A DNA stretch of 64,000 nucleotides, from assembly GCA_028824685.1 (NCBI GenBank), contig JAPPCZ010000087.1:25915-89914 (forward strand). The letters run 5' to 3'. Below are positions 2-64,000 of this stretch, one piece after another; the first letter of the stretch is position 1; each line of letters starts with the position of its first letter. The DNA comes from Candidatus Poribacteria bacterium. GTDB taxonomy: Bacteria; Poribacteria; WGA-4E; WGA-3G. Made by a program: the position numbers and the translations under genes. Under the pieces are notes generated by a model, which saw only the letters and a list, made by a program, of their open reading frames with translations, did no database searches and was not told the DNA's origin.

Positions 2-1165
2 CTGTGGCCCTCGGAATTAACAGATATCAGGACACTTCTGGAAATGTATCTTGAAAACGGTGAAGGAATTCTTCCAAAGCAAAAACTATCATCATTATTT
101 GAATCTACTTTCCAACTTGGTAAAGAAACTGCTCCATCCAATAACGAATGTAGACGAACTATAGCTAGTGCAGGGCTATTATGTGCCATTGCAGTATCAA
201 GTTATACCGACAAAGAAAATCATGTTGCCGAAATTGAAGCTTGGACGCTTTATATTGCTTATGTCCTTGCCCTTGCAGAGAAATGGAACCTTCCAAAAAA
301 GGTCTACAAAAATGAATTTGAAATTGCAACACAATCCCTCTATAATACCTTAGGAAACCTTTGTGCTGAGGTTAAAGATCGAACCTACCTGGTAGAGGGG
401 AATCCGTTGACAGATTCTTATGTCTACAAAGTTCGTATGACATGGTTATTAGGGTTGATGAGTATCTATGCACTATGGCGATGCATTAAAAAAGAACCAA
501 AAAATGAAACGGATGATTTTCTTCGAGATTTTTGTAGGGAAAAACGTAGTCAATTGAAATTATGGGGCGAAGCAGCAATACCCCAATTTCTCGCGTTCTT
601 TTGGTTTTTTAGAAAAATTGATGGAACAAAGGAACCAGACTGTTTAATTTACAAACTGATATCGAAAATATGCAACCTAAATAGACCGGGAAACAATAGA
701 TTTCTTGCTAATCCATACTATGAAGTAGAGGAATTGCTTCCACATCATTTTGCACCAATTCTCATACCACCCCCGGTGCCTCTAAAGGATTCCTTTGAAG
801 GGCAATCTTATGCGTTAGAGGGATTAGTTCACCTATATGTACGCAGAAATTGGAAACAAGCGATGCGAAGTCTTTGGCCTGCTGTAACAAGATTGCAATT
901 CGAATCCTTTGTCCCGAATAATTTTTGTGAATTTTATAGATGGAGGAGTGAAATTGGACATAACAATTTTGACTCTCCCACACATACGCAAGACTGGGAA
1001 GAATTAAAAACTATTTCTTTTGAATCCGAAGGCACTTGCATTCCGCCAACTACAAAAGAACATCCTATTCTCTTATTACTTTTTCTATGTGTATATCCAC
1101 ACAGAATGAATGCAGAAATTATAAGATGGTTGGATACACAGATGAAAGATATACCAAGACCATAA
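2..1165 (+). CDS. hypothetical protein, unknown function; 5' end probably outside the window
   Basis: Long ORF (373 aa from the ATG at 44). The frame stays open back to position 2, so the gene likely starts upstream. No recognisable catalytic motif. AT-rich compared with neighbouring core genes. Lies next to a duplicated purL 5' fragment and a TA cassette. Confidence 0.5.
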   Translation: MWPSELTDIRTLLEMYLENGEGILPKQKLSSLFESTFQLGKETAPSNNECRRTIASAGLLCAIAVSSYTDKENHVAEIEAWTLYIAYVLALAEKWNLPKKVYKNEFEIATQSLYNTLGNLCAEVKDRTYLVEGNPLTDSYVYKVRMTWLLGLMSIYALWRCIKKEPKNETDDFLRDFCREKRSQLKLWGEAAIPQFLAFFWFFRKIDGTKEPDCLIYKLISKICNLNRPGNNRFLANPYYEVEELLPHHFAPILIPPPVPLKDSFEGQSYALEGLVHLYVRRNWKQAMRSLWPAVTRLQFESFVPNNFCEFYRWRSEIGHNNFDSPTHTQDWEELKTISFESEGTCIPPTTKEHPILLLLFLCVYPHRMNAEIIRWLDTQMKDIPRP

Positions 1166-1214
1166 ACCACTGGAGTTTGGTCGCTGTTTAACTTTGGAAA
1201 TAGCGGAGAAAATA

Positions 1215-1409
1215 ATGTCTAATAAGGTAAATGAATTCCAAATTCTAAATGCAAATGATGCTGAATTAATGCGTATCAGCCAAGAAGGGACTTTGTCGCT
1301 GAACTTGAACGAAATGCAGACAATTCAGTCCCATTTTGCGAAACTGCAACGTAATCCAACCGATGTAGAACTTGACCCTATTCCGCGCGATATGGTTTAT
1401 GGCAATTAA
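1215..1409 (+). pseudogene. truncated duplicate of the purL 5' end (first ~60 codons plus RBS)
   Basis: Protein MSNKVNEFQILNANDAELMRISQEGTLSLNLNEMQTIQSHFAKLQRNPTDVEL is near-identical to the N-terminus of PurL at 2402. About 190 bp, including the upstream RBS, is repeated at roughly 90% nucleotide identity (1195-1385 vs 2385-2575). Confidence 0.75.
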
Positions 1410-1451
1410 GCGTCCTGTTTATGTGAGTTTAGAAACTTCCTATAAAAACAA

Positions 1452-1480
1452 TTGATAATCAACACAAGCTGTGGTATACT
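1452..1480 (+). promoter_or_regulatory. sigma70-like promoter for the TA cassette
   Basis: TTGATA (1452-1457), 17-nt spacer, TGGTATACT extended -10 (1472-1480). Sits about 30 nt upstream of an AAGGGG RBS and the ATG at 1513. Confidence 0.55.
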
Positions 1481-1512
1481 CTTTTCAACTGTTTTACCAA
1501 GGGGTAGATACC

Positions 1513-1740
1513 ATGAAAACGCTCCCGTTAGAAACTGACCATAAAATCAAATTACCACGTGATTGGGTCCAAGAACTGGGGTTGGAATCGGCTGTCATGC
1601 TTGAACGGACAGATGAGGGTATCCTTATCCGTCCCTACACAGCACAGACGTGGGACGAGATTTATGCCGAAAAACTCAAAATAGGCACTCCTGCAGCATT
1701 AGACTTGTCCGAGGTAAGCGGTGACGACCTTATCTTCTGA
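1513..1740 (+). CDS. AbrB/MazE-type (SpoVT-AbrB fold) antitoxin-like small protein
   Basis: 75 aa from the ATG at 1513 (MKTLPLETDHKIKLPRDWVQELGLE...). Typical size and N-terminal pattern of a swapped-hairpin antitoxin. Overlaps the downstream PIN gene by about 20 nt. Confidence 0.5.
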   Translation: MKTLPLETDHKIKLPRDWVQELGLESAVMLERTDEGILIRPYTAQTWDEIYAEKLKIGTPAALDLSEVSGDDLIF

Positions 1741-2314
1741 TCAATTTGCCGGACGCGGATTAGACGCAATGCTAATTGTCTATTCCTTGCTTGAGGACCA
1801 TCCCGCCTCTGTTGTCTGCGAATCGTTTATCCGAGAACACGCCAGTTGGCACACGACGACACTTACGTTATTGGAAGCAATATCGATTCTCACAAAGATC
1901 TATGGTGTAGGTTTCAACCTTGCCTCACAGCAGCTCTCCCAATTTTCCGCAGGACCGATTGAAATTATTGAAGTAGACCTACCAATAACCCTCGCGTCGA
2001 TGCAGATAGCCGACGCATTGGAAATTGATATTACTGATGCGGTACTTTTACAGGCAACGCGCGCACGAGGTGCTACCGTCTTGGCAACGGATGACCGTAA
2101 ACTGATACAAGCCTGCGATCAGGTAAATATAGTTGTTGAAAATCCGATTGATGTTTCGCTTCGGCGACAGATGGCGAGTTGGGAATCAGAGAACTTGCCG
2201 CAAAAAGGGTTGCCACGCATTCTTAGGCAGATTCATCATTGGCTACGTCAGAACCATCAACAGGCTGCCGAAGATTTTTGGTCTCGAACAGGAGGCGGAA
2301 GTCACCTGCCTTAA
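1721..2314 (+). CDS. PIN-domain (VapC-like) toxin
   Basis: Acidic residues placed like a PIN domain: LDAML near the N-terminus, E in LLEAISIL, D in DITDAVLL and LATDD. Translationally coupled to the upstream AbrB-like ORF. Start could also be the ATG at 1770. Confidence 0.55.
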   Translation: MTTLSSDQFAGRGLDAMLIVYSLLEDHPASVVCESFIREHASWHTTTLTLLEAISILTKIYGVGFNLASQQLSQFSAGPIEIIEVDLPITLASMQIADALEIDITDAVLLQATRARGATVLATDDRKLIQACDQVNIVVENPIDVSLRRQMASWESENLPQKGLPRILRQIHHWLRQNHQQAAEDFWSRTGGGSHLP

Positions 2315-2401
2315 CTGCAAGGAATCTGCTCAACCGCTTATATGAAACATTACAGGCTTTAAAAAGAAGTTGAGTCTTTACTATAAATTACGGAGAAGAT
2401 A

Positions 2402-4798
2402 ATGTCCAATAAGGTCAACGAATTTCAGATTCTAAATGCAGATGATGCTGAATTAATGCGTATCAGTCAAGAAGGCACTTTGTCGCTGAACTTGAACGAG
2501 ATGCAGACAATTCAGTCCCATTTTGCGAAATTACAACGCAATCCAACCGACGTGGAGCTTGAGACGATTGCACAAACATGGTCGGAGCATTGCGTCCACA
2601 AAACCTTTAAAAGCATTATTCTCTATTCTGAAGAGGGCAAGGAAACAGAACAGATTGATGGCTTGTTTCCAACCTACATTCAACGCGCAACAGAGGTAAT
2701 AGATAAACCGTGGTGTGTCTCTGTCTTTTCAGACAATGCTGGCATCATTGAATTTGATGAGACATTCAATCTCGTTTTCAAGGTGGAAACGCACAACCAT
2801 CCATCAGCCATTGAACCTTACGGTGGTGCGGGGACAGGCATCGGCGGTGTTATCCGTGACTCTCTCGGCACAGGACTCGGTGCGAAACCGATTCTGAATA
2901 CAGATGTTTTCTGCTTTGGATTGCCGGACACACCTTATGAGAAATTACCGAAAGGAACACTCCACCCCAAACGCGTATTCAAAGGCGTTGTTGCTGGTGT
3001 CCGTGATTATGGAAACCGCATGGGGATTCCTACTGCTAACGGTGCAATTCTTTTTGACACACGCTACACTGCAAACCCACTTGTCTTTTGTGGAAACGTC
3101 GGACTAATACCGATAGATAGGTGCGACAAATCTGTTGAACCCGGTGATTTAATTGTTGCTGTTGGCGGGCGTACAGGACGCGATGGAATTCACGGTGCTA
3201 CCTTCTCTTCAGCAGAATTAGATGATACTTCTGAAAGCCTCGGCAGTGTTGTTCAGATCGGTAATCCGATTATGGAAAAGAAGATTGTTGATGCACTTTT
3301 ACAGGCACGCGACCAAAACCTGTACCGTTCTATAACAGACTGCGGCGCTGGTGGGTTCTCATCGGCTGTAGGTGAAATGGGTGAGGATACAGGCGCTGAG
3401 GTACATCTGGAACGAGTCCCATTAAAATACGAAGGGTTAGCACCTTGGGAAATCTGGCTATCGGAAGCACAAGAACGGATGGTAATCTCTGTTCCGCCTG
3501 AAAATCTGGACGAACTGATGGAAATTTGCGAGGCAGAAATGGTTGAGGCAACAGTGCTTGGTAATTTCACAGATACGCACAGATTGCAGGTTTTCTATGA
3601 CGGCGCAATAGTTGCGGATTTAGATATGAAATTTCTGCACAAAGGCTTGCCACAACACGTTAAAAAAGCAACTTGGCAACCACCACAGCACGAAGAAATG
3701 CCATCGCGAGACAGCCAAACCGAGAACTACGCCGAAGACTTGTGCCGACTCCTTGCCAGTCCAAACATCGCCAGTAAAGAATCTGTCATCCGCCAGTACG
3801 ACCATGAGGTTCAAGGAGGGGTTGTTATCAAACCTCTCGTTGGTAAAAAAAACGATGGACCAAGCGATGCATGCGTCACCACACCAGTTATAGGTAGTGA
3901 GAAAGCGGTCATTGTTGCAAACGGCATCAACCCGAAATATAGCGATGTTGATGCGTACATCAGCGCAGCATCGGCAATTGATGAGGCACTCCGAAATATA
4001 GTTGCTGTCGGAGGAACACTTGAAAAAACGGCACTATTAGACAATTTCTGCTGGGGAAATCCCGATAAACCTGACCGACTTGGCGCGTTAGTCCGTGCAG
4101 CAAAGGCGTGTTACGACATTGCTACTGCCTACGGCACGCCCTTCATCTCTGGGAAAGATAGTCTTTACAACGAATACCGAGATACGACAACAGGAGAGCA
4201 ACGCGCAATTCCTTCAACGTTGCTCATATCTGCAATATGCGTGATGCCCAACATTCGCAACGCAGTTACAATGGATGTGAAATCCCCTGGTAACCTCATC
4301 TATGTCGTTGGCAACACTTACGCTGAATTGGGAGGGTCTCACTACTTCGGTATCCACGGTTTCATTGGTAACACTGCTCCAGTTGTCCGTCCAGATGAAG
4401 GTAAGTTAACGATGGAAAAACTCAGTACTGCTATCAATAGTGGTTTGGTGCGTTCCTGCCATGATTGTTCTGAAGGTGGTATCGGTGTAGCAGCAGCGGA
4501 GATGGCATTTTCAGGTGGATATGGCATGTCACTTAATATCAGCAACGTTCCTACTGGAGAAGAAATTACTTCCGACGATTTTCTACTATTTTCTGAGTCG
4601 AATAGTCGTTTTCTTGTTGAAATTGAACCGAAACACCAAGATTCTTTTGAAAACCACATGGTTGGCGTGCCGATAGGTTGCCTCGCTGCTGTTACAGAAA
4701 CACCGAAATTTATTGTCAACGGATTGACAGGCAAATACGTTATAGAAACTACTATTGATATTCTCAAATCAGCGTGGCAAACACCATTGCATTCGTAA
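2402..4798 (+). CDS. purL: phosphoribosylformylglycinamidine synthase subunit PurL (FGAM synthase II)
   Basis: 798 aa. Has the PurM-superfamily glycine-rich motif YGGAGTGIGGVIRD and duplicated AIR-synthase-like halves. Immediately followed by the purQ glutaminase. Confidence 0.9.
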   Translation: MSNKVNEFQILNADDAELMRISQEGTLSLNLNEMQTIQSHFAKLQRNPTDVELETIAQTWSEHCVHKTFKSIILYSEEGKETEQIDGLFPTYIQRATEVIDKPWCVSVFSDNAGIIEFDETFNLVFKVETHNHPSAIEPYGGAGTGIGGVIRDSLGTGLGAKPILNTDVFCFGLPDTPYEKLPKGTLHPKRVFKGVVAGVRDYGNRMGIPTANGAILFDTRYTANPLVFCGNVGLIPIDRCDKSVEPGDLIVAVGGRTGRDGIHGATFSSAELDDTSESLGSVVQIGNPIMEKKIVDALLQARDQNLYRSITDCGAGGFSSAVGEMGEDTGAEVHLERVPLKYEGLAPWEIWLSEAQERMVISVPPENLDELMEICEAEMVEATVLGNFTDTHRLQVFYDGAIVADLDMKFLHKGLPQHVKKATWQPPQHEEMPSRDSQTENYAEDLCRLLASPNIASKESVIRQYDHEVQGGVVIKPLVGKKNDGPSDACVTTPVIGSEKAVIVANGINPKYSDVDAYISAASAIDEALRNIVAVGGTLEKTALLDNFCWGNPDKPDRLGALVRAAKACYDIATAYGTPFISGKDSLYNEYRDTTTGEQRAIPSTLLISAICVMPNIRNAVTMDVKSPGNLIYVVGNTYAELGGSHYFGIHGFIGNTAPVVRPDEGKLTMEKLSTAINSGLVRSCHDCSEGGIGVAAAEMAFSGGYGMSLNISNVPTGEEITSDDFLLFSESNSRFLVEIEPKHQDSFENHMVGVPIGCLAAVTETPKFIVNGLTGKYVIETTIDILKSAWQTPLHS

Positions 4799-4870: not shown

Positions 4871-5672
4871 TGTGAAACCAAAGGTACTTATCTTACGAAC
4901 TGCAGGAACGAATTGCGATGCTGAAACGGATGTAGCGTTTCAACTTGCAGGTGCGGAAACTGATTTAGTCCACATTCAAAACCTCATATCTGGCAAAACA
5001 AACCTTTCCGATTATCAGATTCTTGCTATTCCGGGCGGATTCTCTTATGGCGATGATATTGCAGCAGGGATACTACTTGCTGTAGAGATGAAACATAAAC
5101 TGAGAAAAGCTCTTGATCAGTTTGTCGCTGACAATAAACTCATAATTGGAATATGTAACGGGTTTCAAGTGCTGGTGCGGACAGGGTTGTTGCCAGGGAC
5201 AGAAAACGGTAATACTGCAATTACACAGCGCGCAACTTTAGCGATGAACACGTCTGCCAAATTTGAATGTCGGTGGGTTGAATTGGACACACAACAGAGT
5301 CCTTGTATCTTTACAAAAGGTATCAAACCACATCTCTATCTCCCTGTGGCACATGCTGAAGGTAAGTTTACTGCACCATCTGACGTATTGGAAGACTTAG
5401 AGTCAAAAAACCAAATTGTATTCCGATATGGAAATACACAGCAATCATTTCCTGACAAGACTGAGTATCCACACAACCCCAACGGTTCTGATGCAGATAT
5501 TGCTGGCATCTGTGACGTAACAGGAAGAATTTTTGGGTTGATGCCTCATCCTGAAAGATTTCTGCTGAAATGGAATCATCCGCGTTGGACACGAGAAGAC
5601 TTGCCTGAAGAAGGTGATGGCCTCGCAATTTTCAAAAACGCTGTTAACTACGCGAAAGCGAATTTTTCATGA
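4871..5672 (+). CDS. purQ: phosphoribosylformylglycinamidine synthase glutaminase subunit PurQ
   Basis: Class I glutamine amidotransferase with GICNGFQVL (Cys nucleophile) and HPE in MPHPERF. GTG start at 4871 preceded by GGGAGAAAA. The track ORF from 4755 overlaps the purL end and is probably too long. Confidence 0.85.
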
Positions 5673-7541: not shown

Positions 7542-7714
7542 CTCTCAATCTAATGTTGTAGAATATCTTGGCTCATGTATAGAATAAGTGCTAATGAAAA
7601 CACTTAACCCGCGTGGCCATTGACTTTATTAAAAATAGCTGCACACATCTTATACATGAGCGAATATCTTTTATAGTGAATTTTACAATTAACCTTACAT
7701 TATTGAGTTGCAGG

Positions 7715-7805
7715 AGGGAACTCCGATTCCCGACGGCTAATAGGTTGAGTCGTGATTCGGAGATCACTCCCGCTGAATGCCAAACGCGCATTCAGCGTTG
7801 ATTCA
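7715..7805. repeat. cluster of short palindromic repeat modules (GGGAACTCCGATTCCCGAC / GATTCGGAGATCACTCC / GCCAAACGCGCATTCAGCGTTGATTCACAG)
   Basis: The same modules recur at 17600-17640, 47320-47420, 50560-50700 and 53770-53900. Confidence 0.8.
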
Positions 7806-7847
7806 CAGAAGAAGTGTAAACTTATTTTTCCAATTCACTATAAGCAA

Positions 7848-8363: not shown

Positions 8364-8653
8364 CAGGGTTATTCAGTTTTCAATATTTTTCATGTTTGTT
8401 TGCTATGCCGTTAATTTAATATGTTGCCATCTTGTCCGTGTCTTTAGTCCCGCTGAATGCCATAAGACGAATGCCATACGCGCATTCGTCTTATGGCATT
8501 CAGCGGGACTAAAAAACTGGAAGGGGTACTCGTTTTCTATAAACATAGCGTCCCTACGGGACTAAAGAACAATGTTCATGTTTCTGGGTATTAACTTTCA
8601 GTAAGTCTCAATACCAGAAAACTCTTAAAACTGAATAACCCTGCTAGCTCAAA
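8364..8653. mobile_element. MITE-like non-autonomous element, copy 1 (17-bp TIR CAGGGTTATTCAGTTTT)
   Basis: Perfect 17-bp terminal inverted repeats at 8364-8380 and 8637-8653. Degenerate 9-bp flanks CCAACTCAA / CTAGCTCAA (7/9 match). Contains a 28-bp-arm perfect palindrome (8449-8518) and TAGTCCCGTAGGGACG-family modules. Second copy at 42764-43093. Confidence 0.75.
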
Positions 8654-8732: not shown

Positions 8733-9542
8733 ATGAATCGAATTGAAAAGAAATTTCAGGAACTCAAACAGCAAGGTGCCAGCGCATTTATGCCGTATGT
8801 CTGTGCTGGAGATCCAAACCCAGAACTAACCCCTAAACTTTTTCTTACCCTTGAAGAAGCTGGTGCTGACATCATAGAATTTGGTGTTCCCTTCTCCGAC
8901 CCGATAGCAGACGGGCCGACTATTCAACGTGCCAGCGAACGGGCACTCAAACACCGCATCTCTCTCCAACAAATTCTTGAGATTGTAAAAACTCTCCGAC
9001 AACAGACGGAAATCCCCATCGCTTTGATGAGTTACTATAACCCTATCTTTCGGATGGGCGAGGAGTCATTTTGCAAAGCTGCGCAAGCTGCTGGTATTGA
9101 TGGTGTAATCATTCCGGATTTACCGCCTGAGCAGGCGGATTCGCTTCTGAAAGTTGCATCACAATACAATCTTGCGACTATTTTTCTCGTCGCACCGACA
9201 AGTCCACCAGAACGAATGCAATTGATTGCATCGGTCAGCACAGGATTTATCTATTGCGTCTCGGTAACAGGAGTAACTGGAGCAAGGGCAACTTTGTCAG
9301 ATGAGGTTGCACCTATGATAGCAGAACTACGCAAGCACACAGACAAACCGATTTGTGTCGGTTTCGGTATATCAACGCCTGAGCAGGCAACGCAAGTTGC
9401 CCATGTTGCTGATGGTGCTATTGTGGCAAGTGCTATTATCAATGTCGCTGAAAAGAATATGGATGACGAAACAAAATTGCTTACTGAGGTGAAACAGTTT
9501 GCATCAGATTTGGCGGCTGGAACAAAAATAGTTGATATTTAA
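8733..9542 (+). CDS. trpA: tryptophan synthase alpha chain
   Basis: EFGVPFSDPIADGPTIQ motif. 269 aa. No trpB adjacent. Confidence 0.85.
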   Translation: MNRIEKKFQELKQQGASAFMPYVCAGDPNPELTPKLFLTLEEAGADIIEFGVPFSDPIADGPTIQRASERALKHRISLQQILEIVKTLRQQTEIPIALMSYYNPIFRMGEESFCKAAQAAGIDGVIIPDLPPEQADSLLKVASQYNLATIFLVAPTSPPERMQLIASVSTGFIYCVSVTGVTGARATLSDEVAPMIAELRKHTDKPICVGFGISTPEQATQVAHVADGAIVASAIINVAEKNMDDETKLLTEVKQFASDLAAGTKIVDI

Positions 9543-39420: not shown

Positions 39421-39439
39421 AGGTGTATCCATATTGCAC

Positions 39440-39600
39440 AGAGGCATTCAATTGTCGCGAACTTCTCTTATTGGAGGGCTTTGTAAGCCCGACTTAACTT
39501 ACAAACGCGTTTAATGTGGATGTCATACGCGCATTCACCACGCGCAATTTATTACACCTCTTTTCTTCTTGTAGGAGCGACCTCCTGGTCACGACCCCGT
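39440..39600. repeat. intergenic repeat block (CATTCAATTGTCGCGAAC...TTGGAGGGCTTTGTAAGCCCGAC, GTCATACGCGCATTCACC, TGTAGGAGCGACCTCCTGGTCACGAC)
   Basis: First module repeated at 43110-43160. Last module at 20625. Confidence 0.7.
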
Positions 39601-42763: not shown

Positions 42764-43093
42764 CAGGGTTATTCAGTTTTCAATATTTTTGATGGTTTTT
42801 TGCTATGACGTTAATTTGATGTGTTGCCATCTTGTCCGTGTCTTTAGTCCCATAGGGACGCTATGTTTATAGAAAAATGTTATCTACCTCTCTTGAGTTC
42901 CGGGGAATGCCTAAATGGCATTCATACCGTTGATTTGGTAGGAACGGCATAGAAGATTTAACATATTGTCCTCGCCAAATACAAAACGCGTATTTGGCGA
43001 GGATTCATGGGACTAAAGAACAATTTCATGTTTGTGGATATGAACTTTCAGTAAACCTCAATACCAGAAAACTCTTAAAACTGAATAACCCTG
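42764..43093. mobile_element. MITE-like element, copy 2 (17-bp TIR CAGGGTTATTCAGTTTT) with 9-bp target-site duplication ACTCTCTAT
   Basis: TIRs at 42764-42780 and 43077-43093. Identical direct flanks ACTCTCTAT at 42755-42763 and 43094-43102. The left ~90 bp and right ~50 bp are shared with copy 1 at 8364-8653. No coding capacity. Confidence 0.85.
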
Positions 43094-43104
43094 ACTCTCT
43101 ATCC

Positions 43105-43205
43105 AAAGCCATTCAATTGTCACGAAGTCATCTTGTTGGAGGGCTTTGTAAGCCCGATTTATTACCCAACGGTAGGCGCGTTTTGTAAACGCGCCTACCG
43201 TTGGC
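43105..43205. repeat. repeat modules CATTCAATTGTCACGAAG...TTGGAGGGCTTTGTAAGCCCGAT and CGGTAGGCGCGTTTTGTAAACGCGCCTACCG
   Basis: Copies of the modules at 39445 and 36735/50722/58300. Confidence 0.7.
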
Positions 43206-47319: not shown

Positions 47320-47420
47320 GTCGGGAATCGAAGTTCCCGACTACAATACACAAGGTTTCTGCGAATCAACGCTGAATGCGCGTATGGCATTCAGCGGGAG
47401 CGATCTCCGAATCGCGACCT
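47320..47420. repeat. repeat block (AGTCGGGAATCGAAGTTCCCGACT, GCTGAATGCGCGTATGGCATTCAGC, GAGCGATCTCCGAATCGCGACC)
   Basis: The same three module types appear at 7725-7800 and 50560-50690. It overlaps the 5' end of the track ORF 47384, which is therefore probably over-extended. Confidence 0.8.
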
Positions 47421-50483: not shown

Positions 50484-50559
50484 TTTCAGATGCATCTGTT
50501 ATAGTAAAATCTAATTGAAACAATTATAGTAAAATTATGTAAATAAGTTTACATATATT

Positions 50560-50750
50560 CTGTAGGAGCGATCTCCGAATCTCGACAAAACGGACTGATA
50601 GTCGGGAATCGGAGTTCCCTCCCGCCAAATCATGCAGAATACCAAACGCGTATTCTGCCAAGCGCATTTGGCGTTGATTCACAGATCAGATGTCCAGTTA
50701 ATTGTAGAATTCACTATAATAGCGCGCTTACAAAGCGCGCCTACAAGGTT
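50560..50750. repeat. intergenic repeat block (CTGTAGGAGCGATCTCCGAATCTCGAC, AGTCGGGAATCGGAGTTCCC, CCAAACGCGTATTCTGCCAAGCGCATTTGGCGTTGATTCACAG, TAGCGCGCTTACAAAGCGCGCCTA)
   Basis: Combines modules seen at 7725-7805, 47320-47420, 36735 and 58300. Confidence 0.8.
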
Positions 50751-62172: not shown

Positions 62173-62678
62173 GGTTATCAATTCCCTCCGACAATAACTC
62201 TGTTTCAAGTCAATGTTGATGATTACTAAAAAAATAACCCAACATCGAATCGTTATCGACGTCGGGTAGTGATGTATGAGGCCAATTAAAACTTTTTCAT
62301 GAGTGCTTACAAACTATCGCCACCTACCGCCGCAGTACAAAAACGGGTACAACCCGAGCGTAAAGAGCGCCCAAAGGCTGAAATAATAGTCCCGTAAAAA
62401 TGTGAGAACGGACTGTGTTCCACTCGTTGGTACTGTAGAGGTGATCGTGTGTTCAAACTTCTGCATCACAAAGAATCCCTAATTTCTTTGGTTGTAAGCC
62501 TTTCTCAGTTTTCTTACTTATAAAACGTTATTCCAAACAAAACGTTTAAAATTAAAACTACTTTTTAATATGATAACATACTTTATAAGGTTAAGTCAAG
62601 TTTTTAATTCATTTTATCCTTTGTAACAAAACAGTTTTAGTCAATCCAATTTTTTCTGATAGGGAGCGCATTGCCCAT

Positions 62679-62920
62679 CTATTCCATGCTTTTCTCAAGA
62701 ACAACACGATGATAACGCTTTTTACCTGCACGCAGAAGTAACGCGTTTTCCTCTAACAGATTAGCATCAATGACGGTATCTATCACCTTATACTGCTTCT
62801 CATTGATATATGCGCCCCCCTGTTGAATCAGGCGGCGCGCTTCACTTCTGGAAGTAACTAAGCCTACTTCATAGCACAACTCCATTATCGGAATGCCAGT
62901 GTTGAGTATTAGCGCCCCTC
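62679..62920 (-). pseudogene. duplicated 3' fragment of tyrS (S4-like C-terminal domain, 68 codons)
   Basis: About 240 bp at roughly 93-95% identity to 63261-63500. Encodes MELCYEVGLVTSRSEARRLIQQGGAYINEKQYKVIDTVIDANLLEENALLLRAGKKRYHRVVLEKSME. Compare the TyrRS C-terminus ...MELFHEVGLTTSRSEARRLIQQGGAYINEKQYKAIDIVIDANLLEENALLLRAGKKRYHRVVVEESIE. Confidence 0.7.
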
Positions 62921-63181: not shown

Positions 63182-63260
63182 TAAAGTTGATGCTGCTATT
63201 ATTTTTGAATTGCGATCATAGTAGATTTGGAATTAATTGGATATTCTGCAGGTCGCCCAT

Positions 63261-64000
63261 CTATTCTATGCTTTCCTCAACCACAACACGATGATAACGT
63301 TTTTTACCTGCACGCAGAAGCAACGCGTTTTCTTCTAACAGATTAGCATCAATGACAATATCTATCGCCTTATACTGCTTCTCATTGATATACGCACCCC
63401 CCTGTTGAATTAGGCGGCGCGCTTCACTTCTGGAAGTAGTTAAGCCTACTTCATGGAACAACTCCATTATCGGAATGCCTGTGTCAAGTCTGTCACCTGA
63501 AATGGTGGTTGTAGGCATTGCATCAAGGTCAAGTCCACCGCCGCCAAATGCAGCGCGCGATGTTTCCTGTGCCTTGTCTGCCTCAGCTTTTCCATGTGCC
63601 AGTTTCGTTGCTTGGTATGCAAGCAACGCTTTTGCTTCTCGAATCTCATCATGTTCCAAACCACCAAGTCGCTTCACCTCATCCATCGGTAAAAAGGTGA
63701 AATATGCTAAGAACCGCTCAACATCACGGTCATCCGTGTTAATCCAGTACTGGTAGAATTGGTAGGGTGAAGTTTTATTTGCATCAAGCCATACTGCGCC
63801 GCCAGCGGTTTTTCCCATTTTTGCGCCACCGGCTGCCGTGAGTAATGGAAAGGTGAGACCATATACACGTTTCCCCTCAATCCTACGCACGAGGTCAACG
63901 CCCGCAAGGATATTACCCCACTGGTCATCACCACCGAGTTGGAGAACACAATTGTATTTTTGGAAAAGACACAAATAATCGTACGCTTGTAGCAGTTGGT
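63261..64000 (-). CDS. tyrS: tyrosine--tRNA ligase (C-terminal part; gene continues beyond the window end)
   Basis: KMSKS-type motif AKMGKT. C-terminal S4 RNA-binding domain. The ORF is open to the window edge. Confidence 0.8.
   Translation of the reverse strand, partial: QLLQAYDYLCLFQKYNCVLQLGGDDQWGNILAGVDLVRRIEGKRVYGLTFPLLTAAGGAKMGKTAGGAVWLDANKTSPYQFYQYWINTDDRDVERFLAYFTFLPMDEVKRLGGLEHDEIREAKALLAYQATKLAHGKAEADKAQETSRAAFGGGGLDLDAMPTTTISGDRLDTGIPIMELFHEVGLTTSRSEARRLIQQGGAYINEKQYKAIDIVIDANLLEENALLLRAGKKRYHRVVVEESIE

Follow-up and report, generated by a model that had tools for sequence, protein, structure and literature searches.

Duplicated purL start flanking a VapBC-like toxin-antitoxin module in Candidatus Poribacteria, a probable scar of homology-anchored insertion

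In a 64,000-nucleotide stretch of Candidatus Poribacteria DNA (contig JAPPCZ010000087.1, positions 25,915 to 89,914; hereafter the window), the beginning of purL is present twice, once as a truncated fragment and, downstream, as part of the intact gene, and the two copies bracket a predicted VapBC-like toxin-antitoxin (TA) module. We consider this arrangement to be probably the scar of a homology-anchored insertion, made by a Campbell-type single crossover or by homology-facilitated illegitimate recombination and afterwards spread by homologous recombination. The incoming DNA would have consisted of a short relic of the 3' end of a restriction-modification (R-M) gene, a promoter, an antitoxin gene, a PIN toxin gene, a leader and a purL 5' end, and would have recombined with the resident purL via the purL homology. 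On the left, codons 1-56 of the resident gene and their ribosome-binding site would have stayed as a dead fragment, and the incoming leader and 5' end would have come to head the working gene. The recombination pathway, its direction and the order of events are what we infer from the structures described below. An initial annotation of this stretch had already proposed a recombination scar in which the insert bore its own purL 5' end, a proposal that is borne out by the leaders of the two copies and by the existence of an empty site in a relative.

The two copies form a direct repeat of 185 nt (Table 1), in which 164 of 185 positions are identical (88.6%) and the longest perfect runs measure 30, 25 and 23 nt; the repeat noted initially at 1195-1385 and 2385-2575, with ∼90% identity, is thus real, with coordinates off by 3-6 nt. 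The homology sets in 17 nt 5' of the ATG, GGAG included, and ends exactly after codon 56 (ATT, 1380-1382 and 2567-2569). Across codons 1-53, the fragment and the intact copy differ at 15 positions, of which 14 are synonymous and 1 is non-synonymous (ratio of non-synonymous to synonymous differences, pN/pS, 0.02). Because 14 of the 15 differences are silent, the two copies appear to be alleles from different lineages and not the products of an in situ duplication; they would have diverged while both belonged to working purL genes of separate lineages. In a dead copy diverging in place, mostly amino-acid-changing differences should be expected. For all fragment pairs, pN/pS lies between 0.02 and 0.38, a range similar to that of pairs of intact genes (0.09-0.25).

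The window fragment also bears marks of decay. It encodes N14, where all other copies examined except that of locus L019 have D; residues 54 and 55, which are invariant in PurL, are changed; and a +1 frameshift just past the break, within the R-M relic, puts a stop codon at 1407-1409, so that the open reading frame (ORF) of the fragment (1215-1409) comprises 64 aa. When 31 residues that are invariant in 16 intact PurL proteins were considered, the fragments that share the exact break of the window fragment (purL codon 56 joined to the R-M sequence; hereafter class A) were found to carry 0-6 changes, and shorter fragments associated with Transposase_31 genes carried more than class A copies. 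These 0-6 changes indicate that the fragments are decaying relics of differing ages. We rejected an assembly chimera, as the arrangement is found in four independent assemblies: four contigs encode exactly this PurL (L001, L002) in the same arrangement, which is also present in L004 and L091.

The relatives of the window locus are all Candidatus Poribacteria, which are sponge symbionts, and L001 provides 7.6 kb of sequence upstream of the window. Comparison of synteny at the purL start, which the initial annotation had suggested, revealed that an empty site exists. L003 has the gene order DUF4268, o39, o69, o198, o539 and purL with neither fragment nor TA pair, and the window has the same order plus the purL fragment and the TA pair. 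At the empty site of L003, o539 is followed by 52 nt and purL, and the leader is that of the window fragment; L022, which is as closely related as L003, shows an empty site too. In L008 and L020, nothing lies between the sulfatase or PEP-hydrolase gene and purL except an intergenic gap of 206-245 nt. L091, the closest relative (∼93% nucleotide identity), has a PDDEXK_3 gene, the purL fragment and the same TA pair. In L004, the gene of a 946-aa WD40/LRR protein is followed by fragment 1, a 1.3-kb cassette, fragment 2, the same TA pair and purL, giving three purL starts in series (two fragments and the intact gene), and in L089, genes of 202 and 122 aa plus HicAB are found between the PEP-hydrolase gene and purL. 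The left neighbor of one and the same cassette therefore varies, being o539 in the window, a coiled-coil/DUF4351 cassette in L004 and PDDEXK_3 in L091, and the purL fragment is the exact point from which the window and L004 are homologous. DUF4268 is the PADLOC candidate defense gene PDC-S11. Overall, in Candidatus Poribacteria, defense and TA cassettes have a hotspot between the PEP-hydrolase gene and purL.

The leaders indicate which of the two starts was displaced. The leader of the fragment (…TTTAACTTTGGAAATAGCGGAG), after o539, is the leader of the intact purL in L003. The leader of the intact purL in the window differs (…GTTGAGTCTTTACTATAAATTACGGAG) and recurs between the cassette and purL in L004, L089 and L091. 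This sharing of leaders indicates that the resident start was displaced and that the working start arrived with the cassette. Similarly, the fragment of L086 keeps the SLFN_AlbA_2-to-purL leader known from L055, L006 and L010. The window and L091 differ by ∼7-8% region-wide, in a mosaic of 83-99% identity per 100 nt; judging from this comparison, the arrangement may have been inherited from the common ancestor of the two, with the cassettes to its left exchanged later.

We turn to the sequence that follows the break. After codon 56, the window fragment and both L004 fragments continue into the same ∼45 nt (CCGCGCGATtTGGTTacGGCAATTAAGCGTCCTGTTTATGTGAGT), which correspond to the end of a 1613-aa gene at L055 477-5318 (ending …NGWFTDPRDLVTAIKRIVYVSVESARIIDNLPDEITAD). 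In PADLOC, this gene scores as a type IIG/type I-like restriction-methyltransferase (IIG/ISP), and the type ISP architecture (Mrr_cat_2, except in L094, ResIII, Helicase_C, ISP_coupler, N6_Mtase and Type_ISP_C) is seen in its homologues of L084, L085 and L094. At the break, R-M codon -36 follows purL codon 56 in frame. At the joint (...ACnATT/CCGCGCGAT, the slash marking the break), at most 1-2 nt are common to purL (ACGATT/GCA) and the R-M gene (ACGGAT/CCG), microhomology so short that it points to an illegitimate joint and not to an att core. The likeness to tRNA-gene 3' ends that had been drawn initially is not supported here, where the break joins purL to the final codons of a type ISP restriction gene.

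The exact joint is present in at least 10 contigs with differing cargo, some of them far from purL. When one fusion ORF served as a protein query, the matches were 31 distinct short ORFs of the PurL N terminus, from sponge-type metagenomes, with no full-length PurL among them. Class A copies adjoin purL in the window, L004 (twice), L091 and L089; in L089, the fragment, the R-M relic, the promoter and the leader frame a 73-aa gene and HicA/HicB in place of VapBC. Other class A copies lie in R-M islands and have no purL in the 10 kb downstream of them (L083 and L088, both with ThsB-TIR cargo, and also L084 and L094), and the order in L084 and L094 is R-M gene, cargo (trypsin-like genes or a pair of the cyclic oligonucleotide-based antiphage signaling system), purL' joined to the R-M 3' end, and a 198-aa gene. 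In the class A fragments P0004, P0005, P0008 and P0009, an open fusion of 83-88 aa runs to the R-M stop codon. Such fusion ORFs lie at L083 10001-10267, L084 10001-10267, L088 2668-2934 and L094 8674-8925 and combine PurL residues 1-56 with the last 32-34 residues of the type ISP enzyme; although open in several diverged copies, they are, judging from these sequences, probably relics. Longer PurL fragments (66-134 aa, class D) were not counted as junctions and are likely artefacts: P0017 (L090), the one that was looked up, is on a frameshift-ridden contig on which purL and purQ are split.

Class A is not the only kind of break. In L086 and L087, the purL fragment breaks off at about codon 47, and in L085 at about codon 31; one and the same Transposase_31 (Rpn-like) cassette follows both of these further break points. 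Conversely, R-M 3' relics of 17-63 codons occur at other cassette boundaries with no purL piece, namely after the PEP-hydrolase gene and inside o69 (in the window genome and in L003) and in L022, L083 and L086. The Transposase_31 (Rpn/YhgA-like nuclease) genes right after these other kinds of purL fragment are at L085 10242-10916, L086 7111-8200 and L087 1161-2249, and the inter-fragment cassette of L004 ends, by eye, in a DUF4351-like piece typical of the Transposase_31 family (L004 9324-9851); a link of these genes to RecA-independent recombination is possible. In the same L004 cassette, the gene of a 152-aa coiled-coil membrane protein contains perfect or near-perfect 33-nt tandem repeats (9085-9215). 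In L089 (3000-5108), a gene pair (112 aa and 113-114 aa, the latter dnstrm_HI1420/HTH) is present in three tandem copies as a TA-like array.

To account for these structures, we propose that the joint originated in a single illegitimate event that connected purL codon 56 to R-M codon -36, in an island with an R-M gene on one side of a single slot and purL on the other (as in L055), by tandem duplication of the slot or by circularization of the excised slot. The joint would hold homology to two conserved genes, and host recombination could integrate it at the purL start or at the R-M end. A single crossover in the purL homology would give the order resident leader, purL' joined to the R-M 3' end, cargo, incoming leader and purL, which is the order of the window; a single crossover in the R-M homology would give R-M gene, cargo, purL' joined to the R-M 3' end and older cassette, which is the order of L084 and L094. 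Double crossovers between the conserved arms could swap the cargo (VapBC versus HicAB in one frame), units could be stacked into arrays (as in L004), and a dedicated recombinase would not be required. That just pieces of the proximal end of purL are seen could be due to selection, because other internal fragments would interrupt the gene. The same products as from the Campbell-type route would be expected if linear DNA had entered by homology-facilitated illegitimate recombination, so that the two routes are indistinguishable here.

Several observations weigh against the insertion model. The repeats of today are just 89% identical, with no perfect run longer than 30 nt, and for this reason RecA-mediated exchange between them would be inefficient. 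The crossover could not be located in the window, as the informative sites of the repeat are mosaic across seven relatives, and sliding identity along purL did not make a boundary between donor and recipient evident. All class A joints are at one nucleotide, as a trans-acting site-specific recombinase would also give, and the array of L004 holds two joints at the identical position; in the homology model, a single origin followed by copying of the joint could explain this. The view reaches ∼10 kb on each side of the loci, so that a distant integrase may lie beyond it. No circular or excised form was observed, scans of Joint Genome Institute metagenomes gave 0 matches to the class A joint and 0 to the TA promoter, and the bias of the R-M relics toward short 3' pieces is not fully explained by the model.

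The alternative that survives best, although we regard it as unlikely, is site-specific integration, whereby integrase-less satellites resembling cis-mobilizable elements would have inserted at an attB at purL codons 54-56 with an integrase supplied in trans, the R-M-like sequence would be an arm of the element, and arrays would have grown by tandem accretion. The single junction nucleotide of the class A copies, used twice in L004, is the strongest point in its favor, and it would also account for the tandem array and for an insert that restores its target gene, as in e14 and phage 21 at icd and SXT at prfC. However, no Phage_integrase, Resolvase or Recombinase family was found at 12 loci (L001, L083-L089 and L091-L094; precomputed Pfam matches of called genes, up to 10 kb per side), and inspection of the ORFs of L004 revealed no integrase, resolvase or large serine recombinase. 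Upstream in the window genome, where the initial annotation had advised a search, and as far as L001 reaches, neither an integrase nor a third copy of the repeat is present. Further, in L055, L084, L085 and L094 the supposed arm belongs to the coding sequence of a complete R-M gene, of which it forms the 3' end, and it is also found without purL' and with varying left ends, joints occur far from purL as well, and there are the two further break points in purL. The boundaries lack inverted repeats and hairpins: their folding does not exceed that of shuffled controls (z +0.85 to +1.26), neither hairpins of the attC type nor inverted repeats at the termini were found, and the inverted repeats that are present are short and at chance level. 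Overall, the several break points in purL, the variable length of the R-M relics and the dead coding sequence in the place of an arm fit a homology-anchored process better than a site-specific one.

Less likely still is a purely local history, in which the purL start was duplicated in tandem in situ in an ancestor and then diverged, with the TA pair already resident and no horizontal acquisition. The joint itself may have originated by tandem duplication of a slot between R-M gene and purL, the arrangement may be vertical in the window and L091 (where identity across it is about the background of 92-93%), and the GC content of the TA module is core-like. Against this stand the excess of silent differences (14 of 15), the different leaders of the two copies, the empty site in the equally related L003 and L022, the replacement of VapBC by HicAB in the same frame in L089, and a promoter and antitoxin that are 99-100% identical between genomes with purL 89% identical. 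We consider it very improbable that the fragment is maintained by selection as a short peptide from the N terminus of PurL (64-88 aa, ending in an R-M tail), for instance a regulator or decoy: a ribosome-binding site and ATG are retained, pN/pS is low and an 88-aa in-frame fusion is open in L083, L084, L088, P0003-P0005, P0008 and P0009 despite 20-30% divergence, but class A copies have substitutions at up to 6 of the 31 invariant residues (shorter fragments at more), the tails are frameshifted or truncated in the window, both L004 fragments, L089 and L091, and the ORFs are short enough to remain open by chance.

The homology-anchored insertion combines ingredients that are known separately. 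Integrative elements that bring a substitute gene end include e14 and phage 21, at the 3' end of icd, and SXT/R391, at the 5' end of prfC, and in all of them the insert restores the target gene. As in the window, the insert bears a copy of the gene end, the gene stays intact, and the displaced end is left as a direct repeat with mostly silent differences; SXT does so at a 5' end, together with a new promoter. These elements code for a tyrosine integrase and rely on a short fixed core, whereas in the window gene-end repeats flank the insert and the insert-borne copy keeps purL whole with no recombinase found within the 10 kb, the break partner is a dead R-M end, the units measure 1-1.3 kb, and the breaks lie at codon 56 throughout class A and near codons 47 and 31 where the other cassette follows. 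The minimal mobile elements of Neisseria are cassettes between conserved flanking genes that are exchanged by homologous recombination. They resemble the present case in that differing whole-gene cassettes occupy one slot between two conserved genes without mobility genes, and the cassettes between the PEP-hydrolase gene and purL differ among L008/L020, L003, the window, L091, L004 and L089. Minimal mobile elements leave no duplicates of the flanks, whereas here relics of both flanks (purL 5' and R-M 3') are carried and form arrays.

Campbell-type insertion-duplication, homology-facilitated illegitimate recombination and merodiploids generated by transformation are treated in two articles (PMC3240628 and PMC3784515). 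Such insertions share with the window locus one homologous anchor, one illegitimate joint nearly without microhomology and duplication of the anchor on both sides, which in the window is the 185-nt duplication of purL with 1-2 nt of microhomology at most at the joint. They are known chiefly from laboratory crosses, whereas here the joint is heritable, widely shared and reused with many cargos in an uncultivated phylum. The array also resembles an integron in its small one- or two-gene cassettes, often TA or defense genes, stacked head to tail by a fixed site. Unlike an integron, it has no intI in the flanks, no attI and no attC hairpins, its boundary repeats are gene relics, and it abuts purL. 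End replacement of the icd/prfC type, slot exchange of the Neisseria type and Campbell-type insertion-duplication are known; what is new is their combination, a reusable chimeric joint of two gene ends that has spread through the defense islands of one phylum.

As a tentative extension of the insertion model, Poribacteria might possess a recombinase-free system of cassette exchange, in which the chimeric joint of purL start and ISP end would serve as portable homology arms with two anchor sites and TA cargo would guard the array against loop-out. If true, the joint system would be functionally an "integron without an integrase," in which host recombination inserts, stacks, swaps and relocates cassettes. 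More generally, defense islands may grow and reshuffle without visible mobile-element machinery, with two conserved gene ends as anchors, and gene-end relics would be datable fossils of each insertion. The purL'-R-M joint could serve as a marker for the flow of cassettes among Poribacteria lineages and loci, and where a gene and a fragment of it close by differ at silent sites only, this could be a simple sign of xenologous replacement as opposed to local duplication. Proteins of 48-91 aa in many Poribacteria assemblies, mostly annotated "FGAR-AT linker," are probably pseudogene relics.

The cassette between the two copies is as the initial annotation had described it, a promoter, an antitoxin gene and a PIN toxin gene. 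The promoter (10 of 12 matches to a σ70-like site in the promoter scan) is identical in L004 and L091 and is conserved in L089 ahead of other cargo. The antitoxin candidate has sub-threshold matches to MazE_antitoxin (17.7 bits, cut-off 24.7) and AbrB (15.7 bits, cut-off 28.3), with E-values for AbrB/MazE of 0.0036 (Pfam) and 0.0088 (NCBIfam), and its 80%-identical homologues are named AbrB/MazE/SpoVT by NCBI. Its gene overlaps that of the toxin by 20 nt behind the one promoter. The toxin matches Pfam PIN (E 1.9e-8; 35.4 bits, cut-off 23.6), its structure model (pLDDT 88.4) has VapC toxins as top PDB matches (template modeling score 0.76-0.81, normalized by target), and the acidic residues D15, E52, D103, D106 and D125 are invariant across 35 homologues. 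Sequence searches of the PDB with toxin and antitoxin matched nothing meaningful, so that the fold search was needed. By this predicted anatomy, a small AbrB/SpoVT-like antitoxin gene overlapping a PIN toxin gene, with PIN fold and acidic tetrad, the cargo is best described as a VapBC-like type II module. It is unlike the usual VapBC in the length of the toxin (197 aa), which has a conserved helical C-terminal extension of ∼55 aa, and in the sub-threshold family scores of the antitoxin.

The TA module has also traveled without purL. In L092 and L093, a bare module (window 1429/1443 to 2329/2334) is found at 84% identity in other islands with no purL piece. The segment with promoter and antitoxin (1449-1800) is 99-100% identical among the window, L004 and L091, while the purL genes are 89-93% identical, a sequence pattern that points to recent exchange or strong constraint. 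As there is no terminator-like site between the TA module and purL in the window scan, the TA promoter probably reads through into, or contributes to, purL transcription. The module is probably an ordinary addiction or defense module. Chromosomal TA loci have an established stabilizing role, and because of this a TA module that lies between 185-nt direct repeats might penalize loop-out; by analogy, it may guard the island against such deletion. A second copy of the TA promoter and leader (window 1443-1517) is found at L092 4257-4331 with 88% identity, before an SLFN_AlbA_2 gene, and promoter modules seem to be shared among different cassettes. The R-M relic was considered as the donor of the promoter and set aside: the -35 box aligns with the I-D-N codons of the R-M end, but no convincing -10 boxes were found behind other relics.

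To the left of the fragment, the gene o539 had been regarded initially as possible further cargo. It is indeed cargo, being AT-rich and variably present (it occurs in L003 and is absent in L004, L008, L020 and L091), but it is not part of the TA insert and belongs to a separate, older cassette. The comparison of composition that had been suggested for this region gave a GC content of 0.385 for o539 and 0.34 for its neighbor o198, versus 0.46-0.47 for core genes; the TA module, however, is core-like (0.466). Neither o198 nor o539 has a credible family match in Pfam, NCBIfam or PADLOC. Homologues of both (198 aa and 538 aa) lie behind the purL'-R-M joint in L084. The two overlapping genes are at L001 6583-8764 (of which window 2-1165 is the 3' part), L003 7770-9948 and L084 10317-12495; from this distribution, they appear to travel as a unit between purL-linked and R-M-linked islands and are a candidate defense system.

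The features of the locus are collected in Table 1. The PurL of the window is 93-97% identical to the PurL of related Poribacteria, and purQ keeps its position to the right of purL in all Poribacteria loci examined. The absence of purS, which had been pointed out alongside the insertion, stands insofar as none was recognized adjoining purL and purQ. It is unrelated to the insertion, as all Poribacteria loci examined show the same. A search of the window with a B. subtilis PurS query, which is a weak test, yielded noise only.

Table 1. Features of the purL locus at the left end of the window
Feature	Positions in the window	Strand	Basis
o539, AT-rich gene, 3' two-thirds	2-1165	+	full gene (539 aa) at L001 7145-8764
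purL' relic, resident ribosome-binding site and purL codons 1-56 (ATG at 1215)	1198-1382	+	repeat identity; leader collinear with L003
R-M 3' relic (type ISP, about codons -36 to -19), in frame with purL codon 56	1383-1428	+	aligns with end of L055 gene
TA module (promoter, antitoxin, toxin), as found elsewhere without purL'	1429-2334	+	L092, L093
Promoter-like site, TTGATA, 17 nt, TG-extended TATACT	1452-1480	+	promoter scan
Antitoxin candidate, 75 aa, AbrB/MazE/SpoVT-like	1513-1740	+	sub-threshold Pfam/NCBIfam matches; names of homologues
PIN-domain (VapC-like) toxin, 197 aa	1721-2314	+	Pfam; structure model; conserved residues
Leader that would have come with the cassette	2335-2401	+	2363-2401 in common with HicAB cassette of L089
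Second repeat copy, working ribosome-binding site and codons 1-56 of intact purL	2385-2569	+	repeat alignment
Intact purL, small-type FGAM synthase II, 798 aa	2402-4798	+	Pfam FGAR-AT_linker, AIRS, AIRS_C
purQ, glutaminase subunit, conserved right flank	4872-5672	+	Pfam GATase_5

Two other kinds of repeat were observed in the window. An element resembling a miniature inverted-repeat transposable element, 280-330 bp long, is present in two full copies (8364-8643 and 42764-43093) with 93% identity; it has 17-bp terminal inverted repeats (CAGGGTTATTCAGTTTT and AAAACTGAATAACCCTG) and an internal palindrome of ∼60 nt, and related short pieces are found at 7710-7843, 39439-39496, 43104-43161, 47357-47418 and 50557-50719. 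Near the right end of the window, a 235-nt direct repeat (62673-62907 and 63255-63489) has 91% identity between its copies, which are 582 nt apart.

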